Source: Gammaproteobacteria bacterium (GTDB lineage: Bacteria > Pseudomonadota > Gammaproteobacteria > UBA4575). From it: DNA of 64,000 nucleotides. The stretch spans positions 1,513,423 to 1,577,422 of the forward strand of contig OZ241890.1 in NCBI GenBank assembly GCA_965203475.1. Direction: 5' to 3'. Both the position numbers and the translations under genes were made by a program. Positions 7,225 to 8,976 of this stretch are shown piece after piece; position 1 is the stretch's first letter; each line of letters starts with the position of its first letter. The notes under the pieces are model-generated. The model did not search any database. It was given only the letters and a program-made list of their open reading frames with translations, and was not told the origin of the DNA.

Positions 7225-8976
7225 TTGAACGATACCAGCCAAGCAATCGAGCATAAAAATATTCATCTGCTTAATGATGATGAAACTCCTTTTGATTTTG
7301 TAATTGAATTACTTAGATCTATATTTTCAAAATCACAAAATGAAGCAGAAAAAATAGCCAAGGCAACAGATAGAACAGGTAAAGGCTTATGCGGCACATA
7401 CCCATCTGAAGTTGCAGATGTGTTGTTAACACGTGCACGACAATATATTACAGATCAAAGCCAACCTCTTAAACTTGCATCTGAAAATGTTGTAAAAAAT
7501 ACTGCTGTTTTGAAATGCGGTTTCTGTGGGAAATTTAAGGATCAAGTTAAACATTTAATAAGTGGAAAGGATACTTATATATGTGATGCATGTGTTCTCA
7601 CAAGCACTGAATTACTCCGAGAAAACCTAGCGGAAAAGAGATTTACATATGCATACGAGATGCTTAACTGGCATTTTGGAAATATCGCTGAAGAACAAAT
7701 AATCACCTCAAGTCGTTTTTTTCCTGCAAGAGTAAGAGTGGATTTACAACTCTCTATTGACTCGTTGCTAAGTGATGGCGTAATTAAATTTATTGGCATT
7801 CATAATGATAGAGAATATGAACAGCTTACTATGGCTACCCTACTTAAGAAAGGCCGACAACCAAAAATGATTGGCCCCATTCAAAGAGAAGATGTAGATA
7901 TTGGTGAGGATACTCCAGTTAAATGTTTAGCTAATGGACTTTGGATACTCAAAGAATCCGATGTTCCTTACGCTGTCTTAGTTACAAAGAACACTGATTA
8001 CACACATCAGAAATCAGGTATCACAATAGAAGCTGCAGCGCCAGCAGGTGAAGAGGCATCTAAAATCACAGAAAAATTTTTCAAAACTTTAGAAAAAGCT
8101 GTTAATACCTCCAAATCATATAGAGGCAAAGTTCTATCTCTAGATATGGCAAGTATGTATTCAGGCATGTCGAACGGTATAACAGTTCACAAGCTCTCTC
8201 CTGTTTCCCAAGATGATGTCATTCTGCCAAAGACCACAAGAGATGCACTAGATCGAAATGTAATAAACTTTGCAAAACAAAGATCTGAATTAGTTTCTCG
8301 TGGACAATCAACAAAAAAAGGATTGCTATTTTATGGACCACCAGGAACAGGTAAAACTCATACAATTAAATATCTAGCTTCAAATTTATCAGATCACACA
8401 ACACTATTAGTAACAGCAGAACAAGTTGGAATACTTGATGAATACTTCTCACTAGCCCGACTACTGCAACCATCTATTTTAGTTATTGAAGATGTAGATC
8501 TAATAGCAAAAGCCAGAGAGACAATAAACAGTCCGTGCGAAGAAGCATTACTAAATAAACTTCTGAATGAGATGGATGGTTTAAAAGAAGATGCAGAAGT
8601 ATTTTTTGTACTAACTACTAATCGTCCTGATACATTAGAAGATGCATTAGCATCTAGGCCTGGAAGGATAGATCAAGCCATTGAATTTCCTTTGCCCGAT
8701 GAAGCCGGCAGAGAAAAGCTTGTTAACCTATATAGTGCAGGCCTTAATCTAGATGAAAAACTGGTGAAAGTAGTCGTGAATAGAACTGAAAATGTAAGTG
8801 GTGCATTTATAAAAGAATTAATGAGGCGATCAACGCAATATAGTCTTGATCGTGGTGATGGTGATTCAGTCATTATTGAAGATATTGAAAGTGCGTTAGA
8901 AGAAATGCTCTTCTCTGGAGGAGTACTTAACACAAAACTTTTAGGTGGAGAAAACAAACAAGATCAAACTCATTGA
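7225..8976 (+). CDS. ClpS-like N-domain + ClpX-type C4 zinc ribbon + classic-clade AAA+ ATPase fusion protein
   Basis: The N-terminus [20 protein letters not shown]...GKGLCGTY...[13 protein letters not shown] aligns with ClpS. [26 protein letters not shown] resembles the ClpX zinc-binding domain (C-x2-C-x19-C-x2-C). Walker A [9 protein letters not shown], Walker B [9 protein letters not shown] and SRH ...SRPGRIDQ are present. The start codon is TTG. Confidence 0.85.
   Translation: [583 protein letters not shown]

Follow-up and report, generated by a model that had tools for sequence, protein, structure and literature searches.

Two Clp substrate-selection modules joined to an AAA motor

The window analysed here, a 64-kb stretch of contig OZ241890.1 from an uncultured gammaproteobacterium, carries on its + strand an open reading frame (ORF), at 7225-8976, that begins with TTG and encodes a protein of 583 amino acids comprising a ClpS domain, a ClpX-type zinc ribbon, a middle domain and an AAA module. 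The ORF is a fusion of two Clp substrate-selection modules with an unrelated AAA motor. All coordinates are positions within the window and residues follow the numbering of the 583-residue product; every feature of the protein lies on the + strand. A protein search recovered 120 full-length relatives (about 580 amino acids, 49-57% identity), almost all of which carry an identical set of precomputed domains. In alignments these homologues line up with the product from residue 1 (consensus MxDxP), which supports the TTG start.

Both N-terminal modules had been named in the initial annotation of this DNA, and both were confirmed by profiles and structures; its other statements about the sequence hold as well. 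Residues 13-85 (7261-7479) form a ClpS-fold domain: Pfam ClpS (PF02617) matches residues 13-84 well above threshold (E 2.5e-17, 62.9 bits against a cut-off of 23) and, in a comparison with solved structures, E. coli ClpS aligned with residues 13-85 without a gap (E 4e-10, offset +17). A ClpX-type C4 zinc ribbon follows at residues 97-133 (7513-7623; Pfam zf-C4_ClpX over the same residues, E 4.4e-12, 46.1 bits against a cut-off of 27), and solved ClpX N-domains match residues 95-137 (E 3e-8 to 2e-6). Its four cysteines, C98, C101, C120 and C123, have the spacing C-x2-C-x18-C-x2-C and are kept in 119-120/120 homologues.

Beyond the ribbon lies a family-specific α/β middle domain (residues 138-345; 7636-8259), which defines the wider family described below. 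The description of this region of about 200 residues as uncharacterised stands: a Pfam scan gave no domain for residues 140-340, and comparison of the middle domain with the PDB gave no relative. Directly before the AAA module, secondary structure in the model and the family alignment place a β-hairpin (residues 303-322; 8131-8190) with an invariant Y312-x-G314 in its loop. The classic-clade AAA module spans residues 360-561 (8302-8907) and was identified by Pfam (residues 367-490, E 1.4e-23), by NCBIfam and by structure matches. According to alignment and model, it runs into a conserved C-terminal tail, MLFxGGxLNxKLLG (residues 561-574; 8905-8946), followed by a variable, disordered end. The model was built with AlphaFold2 from an alignment of 27 sequences and has a mean pLDDT (predicted local distance difference test) of 80.9.

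Residues of the N-degron pocket in the fused ClpS domain

In E. coli ClpS the N-degron pocket comprises N34, D35, T38, M40, H66, V43 and V65 (PMC8346999). With E. coli ClpS numbering as reference and counts taken over the 120 homologues, conservation of the ligand contacts, which the initial annotation had proposed to check, was found to be partial. The counterparts of N34, D35 and T38 at the pocket entrance are N17, D18 and T21, and the family has N in 92/120 (D in 24/120), D in 118/120 and T in 111/120 at these positions; V43 corresponds to V26, with V in 107/120. The gate residue M40 is replaced by F23, and the family has mostly F, W, M, L or Y there. The H66 position is not conserved, being D49 here and D in 32, H in 31, N in 19, G in 16 and S in 10 of 120, such that 82/120 homologues have D, H or N. 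Since the N-domain of UBR1, a reader of type-2 N-degrons, has Asp at the H66 position (PMC8346999), Asp there is compatible with the reading of type-2 N-degrons. From the residues kept we infer that the fused ClpS domain would bind N-degrons.

The E. coli ClpS residues E79 and K84, which we take to be its contacts with the ClpA N-domain, are not preserved: all 120 homologues have a hydrophobic residue (L, M, F, V or I) in place of K84, and the residue in place of E79 varies. To judge from sequence, this loss fits a ClpS domain that no longer docks on ClpA. ClpS, the N-recognin adaptor of ClpAP, is a free protein of about 100 residues, whereas here the domain is fused to the motor and preceded by only a short N-terminal extension, and its H66 position is variable. 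The fusion and the unconserved E79 and K84 positions do not agree with action as a free adaptor docking on the N-domain of ClpA or ClpC.

An AAA module without the aromatic pore-1 loop

All catalytic residues expected of the ATPase site are present in the sequence, and the site is by this reading intact: Walker A GPPGTGKT (K377), Walker B IEDVD (E422-D423), sensor-1 N466 and the arginine fingers R478 and R481, with K377, E422-D423, N466, R478 and R481 found in 120/120 homologues. The Walker A and B motifs, the sensor-1 Asn, the two-Arg second region of homology and the best structural matches place the module in the classic clade, and its best scores are to proteasomal ATPases, FtsH and Cdc48. 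The FtsH/Cdc48-like classification made initially is therefore right as to clade; as to a standard threading motor of that type it had to be abandoned, because the aromatic pore-1 loop is deleted and Walker B has the order ED. Every alignment to Cdc48 D1/D2 and to VAT shows a gap of 8-9 residues at the pore-1 loop, and the family has an invariant, non-aromatic HTTL[IL][IV]TAxQ in this region.

An ED Walker B is an exceptional feature common to YjoB and Bcs1, and YjoB hydrolyses ATP (PMC9565160). Like Bcs1 and Bacillus subtilis YjoB, the fusion protein has one classic-clade AAA module behind an α/β N-domain, ED instead of DE in Walker B (E422-D423 in 120/120 members) and a short, non-aromatic pore-1 region; some family members also share with Bcs1 an N-terminal transmembrane helix. 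The likeness extends to the topology of the model, in which a two-strand hairpin (303-308 and 316-322) and then two helices stand just ahead of the AAA module. In YjoB an S8-S9 hairpin and helices H5-H6 precede the AAA module, and the hairpin loop lines the central pore (PMC9565160). By analogy with this S8-S9 (CPL3) hairpin, the Y312-x-G314 hairpin is a candidate substitute pore loop. Missing pore-1 loop and ED Walker B together leave the label 'unfoldase' insecure, and they make holding, extraction or chamber action of the Bcs1/YjoB kind plausible; by analogy, such a mode may fit at least as well as processive threading. Membership of the Bcs1/YjoB family was rejected, as an N-domain of that fold was not found: comparison of the middle domain with the N-domains of YjoB and Bcs1 gave no detectable fold match.

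Other known systems were likewise set aside. The ribbon resembles the ClpX N-domain in its spacing and in its position N-terminal to an AAA module, but the AAA module here is of the classic clade rather than of HCLR type, has no apparent ClpP-docking loop, is separated from the ribbon by a domain of about 200 residues, and the ribbon is itself preceded by ClpS; NCBIfam ClpX models match only residues 92-139, at 39 bits against a cut-off of 359. IetA, the AAA ATPase of the IetAS plasmid-stability and anti-phage pair, is matched by PADLOC over residues 278-541 (E 1.7e-24), a span that takes in the segment before the AAA module, and the NCBIfam IteA model matches with E 1e-20 (74.3 bits against a cut-off of 510). 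Unlike IetA, the protein has an unrelated N-terminal 280 residues and no adjacent IetS subtilase in any locus; membership of IetAS was rejected on the score, far under the cut-off, and on the lack of IetS, and the literature on IetA and IetS held plasmid-stability and defence-annotation work only, with nothing on the fusion protein. By their defining features, the ClpS-ClpA, ClpX, FtsH/Cdc48, IetA and Bcs1/YjoB families all leave this protein outside.

The middle domain has a set of invariant residues (H150, D173, Q175, D223, D225, C234, E269, E290, S298-Y299-R300-G301-K302 and H322), and in the pore-2 region C438 is nearly invariant. These residues could mark an active site or a ring interface.

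A wider family with interchangeable N-termini

Database names of the relatives copy a single domain ('ATP-dependent Clp protease adapter protein ClpS', 'ClpX C4-type zinc finger') and, applied to proteins of 580 residues, mislead. A scan of one genome per species in GTDB found relatives in 340/185,579 species, most of them Alphaproteobacteria (Bradyrhizobium, Mesorhizobium, Hyphomicrobiaceae, Taklimakanibacter) and some Gammaproteobacteria. NCBIfam has no curated family for them, its best matches being generic AAA families far below their cut-offs, and a literature search on the ClpS/zinc-ribbon/AAA architecture found no paper describing the fusion. The suggestion that this was an architecture without known function is thus borne out. 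The family is real, occurs in a few hundred species and has no described function.

The middle-domain profile alone, searched against 1.84 billion representatives, matched 817 proteins at E ≤ 1e-3 (164 at E ≤ 1e-30) with widely differing domain offsets. Their N-terminal modules were assigned by Pfam scans and by direct reading of the N-termini. The core of middle domain plus AAA was found without any N-terminal module (about 440-460 amino acids); with a hydrophobic helix resembling a transmembrane segment (P0173, P0201, P0231, P0237, P0240, P0251); with a ClpX-type ribbon only or ClpS only, each above the Pfam threshold; with two ribbon-like CxxC...CxxC units in tandem (P0153, P0192, P0140); with ClpS plus ribbon, as in the window protein; and with long arrays of tetratricopeptide repeats (TPR; 670-908 amino acids). 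Because the core occurs with so many different N-termini, middle domain and AAA together make up the family's unit, and ClpS and the ribbon are independent add-on modules on a wider family, one of several interchangeable arrangements. What ClpS, the ClpX ribbon and TPR repeats have in common is that each is a module for binding peptides or termini. Two family members (P0128, P0222) have a duplicated middle domain.

Core-type homologues without ClpS (about 30% identity) were found on 42 plasmids of rhizobia or Burkholderia, of which 35 are conjugative; there they are single genes beside insertion sequences (IS) and toxin-antitoxin genes. In phage records, the matches were either to free ClpS genes or short and confined to the ribbon region.

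An islet at tRNA-Met

The fusion gene lies between two direct repeats at a tRNA-Met gene (CAT anticodon; 9104-9180, - strand), the target of integration. The left repeat (7005-7133) is an att-like, displaced copy of the 3' 45 nucleotides of the tRNA and 84 nucleotides of its downstream flank; the right one (9020-9148) overlaps the 3' part of the intact tRNA gene. An exact-seed search gave a repeat of 123 nucleotides (7005-7127 and 9020-9142; 99% identical, spacing 2015 bp), extended to about 129 nucleotides on alignment, and no other copy of the sequence was found within the window. Identity stops at the anticodon loop of tRNA-Met, the copies reading CCC(C/T)AGCAT and then diverging; tyrosine integrases whose crossover falls in this loop leave such an end. 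The fusion ORF is the only gene between the copies, as the initial annotation had stated in calling it the sole cargo of a tRNA islet. No integrase was found in the islet, its one long ORF having no integrase domain. The gene arrived by tyrosine-integrase-type insertion into tRNA-Met, and the integrase was lost or acted in trans. The G+C content of the islet (0.34-0.38) is near that of its surroundings.

Two related genomes, with YchF 85-86% identical, keep the order prs-rplY-pth-ychF-tRNA-Met, and both are without the fusion gene. After the tRNA one carries an RHS/YD-repeat toxin with a Golvesin_C tip (L092:8233-15092) and the other a DUF5677 protein (L093:8160-9057). The differing cargo marks the flank of tRNA-Met as a variable insertion site in this uncultured gammaproteobacterial lineage, and the fusion gene is a strain-specific acquisition; a clean empty site was not found in these two relatives, which both carry other cargo.

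Elsewhere in the family, genes stand tail-to-tail with a tRNA gene, 36-43 nucleotides away, in an Usitatibacter metagenome-assembled genome (tRNA-Val, L002:9798-9874) and in Mesorhizobium (tRNA-Arg, L078:7683-7759); a search for direct repeats flanking these two copies found none. Within the window, a 29-nucleotide direct repeat (9371-9399 and 9422-9450; 90% identical, spacing 51 nucleotides) lies between tRNA-Met and the end of ychF, its second copy overlapping the ychF stop region. Directly left of the islet is a divergent pair encoding a member of the PpoB2/DUF2182 copper chaperone family (5477-6253, - strand) and a DUF1326 protein (6326-6934, + strand), and the terminator hairpin of the latter (6958-6990) abuts the left repeat.

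Genomic neighbourhood

The neighbours of the gene in the window encode a sensor kinase and response regulator, the PpoB2/DUF1326 pair, YchF, Pth, L25, Prs, IspE and LolB. The protein has no protease domain, and the roughly 8 kb to the left and to the right of the ORF contain no protease gene, in agreement with the initial reading. Across 85 related loci no conserved neighbour or peptidase gene was found. All-against-all clustering of ORFs from 83 loci, extended afterwards to 88, gave no family beyond Bradyrhizobium synteny (at most 24-30 loci), the fusion gene being syntenic across at least 24 Bradyrhizobium species, and on three long contigs the neighbours were unrelated and metabolic. The protein is considered to stand alone because no neighbour is conserved in the 85 loci or on the plasmids.

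A possible stand-alone remodeller

Our preferred explanation, to which we give a probability of about one half, is that the product, a member of an uncharacterised AAA family of bacteria, remodels proteins on its own as a ring that hydrolyses ATP. As far as sequence allows, the best-supported description of the protein is as an AAA+ remodeller with substrate-selecting N-domains, comparable to a ClpS-guided AAA machine. The core engine would be the family-specific α/β domain with its single classic-clade AAA module, and ClpS and the ribbon would act as substrate selectors. The ClpS domain would bind a target by its free α-amino group and by its first residue, bulky and hydrophobic, while the ribbon would dimerise above the ring, probably as in ClpX, and offer a second docking site for a peptide tag or adaptor. 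ATP-driven movements might then remodel a client so tethered over the ring, pull it out of a complex, or hold and release it; loops other than an aromatic pore-1 probably act on it, the candidate being the Tyr312-x-Gly314 hairpin, and no peptidase would be attached. Ring formation, a pore role for Y312 and the absence of degradation are what we infer. Of the earlier proposal of a stand-alone, N-degron-directed unfoldase or segregase, the first element is retained, N-degron direction would follow from the pocket residues, and 'unfoldase' is doubtful. The housekeeping-like synteny in Bradyrhizobium and the mostly metabolic neighbours argue for a role in proteostasis.

Several points weigh against a general remodeller. 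The H66 position is variable, with Gly in 16/120 members. With the canonical aromatic pore-1 loop deleted from the AAA module, the protein may neither thread nor unfold its clients at all. The predicted models are of monomers, and oligomeric state and pore-lining loops are beyond their reach. The remodeller does not account for the invariant polar residues and Cys of the middle domain, which could be an enzyme or a sensor. Finally, linkage to a defence-type ATP-binding cassette (ABC) ATPase in five loci hints at a role more specific than general remodelling.

If N-degrons are bound, the implications go beyond this locus. Bacterial ClpS passes N-degron substrates to ClpA/ClpC-ClpP; here an N-recognin is joined to a different AAA lineage, with neither a peptidase partner nor the standard threading loop, and recognition of N-terminal residues in bacteria would also lead elsewhere than to Clp-mediated degradation, for instance to remodelling, holding, extraction or signalling. 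Specialists in AAA+ proteases or N-degrons would be surprised by an N-recognin coupled to a protease-free, non-Clp motor. The swappable modules (ClpS, ClpX ribbon, TPR, transmembrane helix) amount to a natural experiment in substrate targeting, and the AAA family that the analysis delimits is a broader one without a name (817 representative clusters at E ≤ 1e-3, about 340 GTDB species, 42 plasmids). Architecture and family are not described in the literature searched, though the family is moderately common and visible in databases.

ABC ATPase linkage and a possible role in conflict

A tentative alternative, to which we attach distinctly less belief than to the remodeller, is that the protein acts in conflict with phages or plasmids: ClpS and the ribbon would sense a signal of the invader, for example a new N-terminus produced by a phage protease or a phage protein aimed at Clp adaptors, and the AAA core would respond as effector or switch, in some cases with an ABC ATPase as its partner. 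This alternative concerns biological role and could coexist with a remodelling mechanism. A conflict-system ATPase had also been put forward initially, and the support for it proved circumstantial. Among the 144 nearest neighbours of 44 non-Bradyrhizobium loci, analysed with Pfam and PADLOC, only an ABC-type AAA_15/AAA_21 ATPase recurs. Local BLAST located it in 5/85 loci, on the same strand as the family gene and 13-54 nucleotides from it or overlapping; it is downstream in four (L085:7831-9012, L021:7777-8937, L013:7777-8931, L007:7694-8902) and upstream in one (L027:3928-5112). The copies are 36-72% identical to one another, those of L085 and L027 being 72% identical though their ClpS-AAA proteins are less than 50% identical, and three separate clades of the family are represented among the five loci, close relatives of which have no partner.

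PADLOC scores the partner as HEC-01A-like (E 1e-43 to 1e-48). ABC ATPases of HEC systems pair with TOPRIM, NERD or PIN effectors in defence systems (10.1101/2024.01.29.577857), and in the five loci the family gene occupies the slot that a nuclease effector has in modules of the HEC-01-03, PARIS, Septu and Gabija types. Tight linkage in varying gene order and in three clades speaks for a conflict role, as do the surroundings of the two closest homologues, one beside GmrSD_C (L084) and the other beside the AAA_15/21 ATPase, an integrase and a type I restriction-modification system (L085). The window copy sits in a tRNA islet at a site with other cargo in relatives; core homologues occur on 35 conjugative plasmids beside IS and toxin-antitoxin genes; a constant core with variable N-terminal modules is typical of conflict systems; and the AAA region resembles IetA. 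Taken together, the linked ABC ATPase, the swappable N-termini, the occurrence on plasmids and in an islet and the surroundings of the closest homologues argue for a conflict role at least in mobile sub-lineages. Against this, defence families account for very few of the 144 nearest neighbours, which are otherwise metabolic or housekeeping genes; synteny is kept across the Bradyrhizobium species; and the protein has no recognisable toxic effector domain. Unlike ABC-ATPase defence modules, the window gene and about 94% of loci are without the partner, and the family protein has no nuclease domain. When tested, HEC-02 to HEC-04 were protective and HEC-01 itself was not (10.1101/2024.01.29.577857). 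No HEC-01A-type ABC ATPase was found by tblastn in the whole window, and membership of a HEC-01-like two-gene module was rejected for the window gene, which has no adjacent ABC ATPase.

A more specific form of this idea, which we think unlikely, is that the family is a new kind of immunity or conflict sensor for protein N-termini, in which ClpS would respond to neo-N-termini arising in infection, for instance when a phage maturation protease acts or when host proteins are cut. In sister forms, other termini would be detected by the ribbon or by TPR modules, and detection would switch on the Bcs1/YjoB-like AAA engine, in some lineages with the defence-type ABC ATPase. Were this true, N-degron recognition in a prokaryote would for the first time be seen to serve signalling or defence instead of proteolysis.

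Possible relations to proteolysis and to Clp systems

An N-degron protease in the proper sense, in which the remodeller's place is taken by an unfoldase passing clients to a peptidase encoded elsewhere (ClpP, HslV, a Lon-like enzyme or another) and replacing ClpS-ClpA, is improbable. To our knowledge, ClpS domains and ClpX ribbons serve proteolysis in all known cases, and proteasomal ATPases, FtsH and Cdc48 are the best-scoring relatives of the AAA module. The features by which a peptidase would be engaged are nevertheless wanting: the ClpP-binding IGF-like loop that had been proposed as worth seeking did not appear, no conserved IGF/IGL-type docking tripeptide being seen on reading the family alignment; the C-terminus is variable, and no HbYX motif was seen there in the same alignment; none of the 85 loci has a linked peptidase gene; and processive threading would need the aromatic pore-1 loop, which is deleted.

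We likewise have little confidence that the protein is a decoy or regulator of Clp systems, competing for N-degron substrates of ClpS-ClpA and for adaptors of the ClpX N-domain and so protecting or sequestering them, with the AAA module releasing captured partners on ATP hydrolysis in a holdase-type cycle as proposed for YjoB. It carries precisely the two modules with which Clp systems dock and recognise their partners, and the residues we take to be ClpA contacts are lost. Most members come from Alphaproteobacteria, where ClpX adaptor hierarchies are prominent. The organisation also resembles that of YjoB, for which a chamber-dependent, nucleotide-gated holdase activity is reported (PMC9565160). 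On the other side, the middle domain has no fold match to the N-domains of YjoB or Bcs1, which makes a chamber conjecture, and members with TPR, a transmembrane helix or no N-terminal module do not fit a Clp-specific decoy.

That the gene is an inert remnant, left to decay in a degraded genomic island and without current function in its host, is scarcely credible: the islet has lost or never had an integrase, and an upstream scan gave no promoter-like site above shuffle background, but the reading frame is unbroken for 583 codons, none of the family-invariant residues is missing and the G+C content is like that of the surroundings.

Two further features of the window lie away from the islet. 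A 119-residue ORF at 729-1088 (- strand) matches the Rap1a type VI secretion immunity family (Pfam E 5e-7, just above threshold), and a TPP riboswitch is found at 52439-52551 (- strand; Rfam RF00059, 64 bits, above the gathering score).

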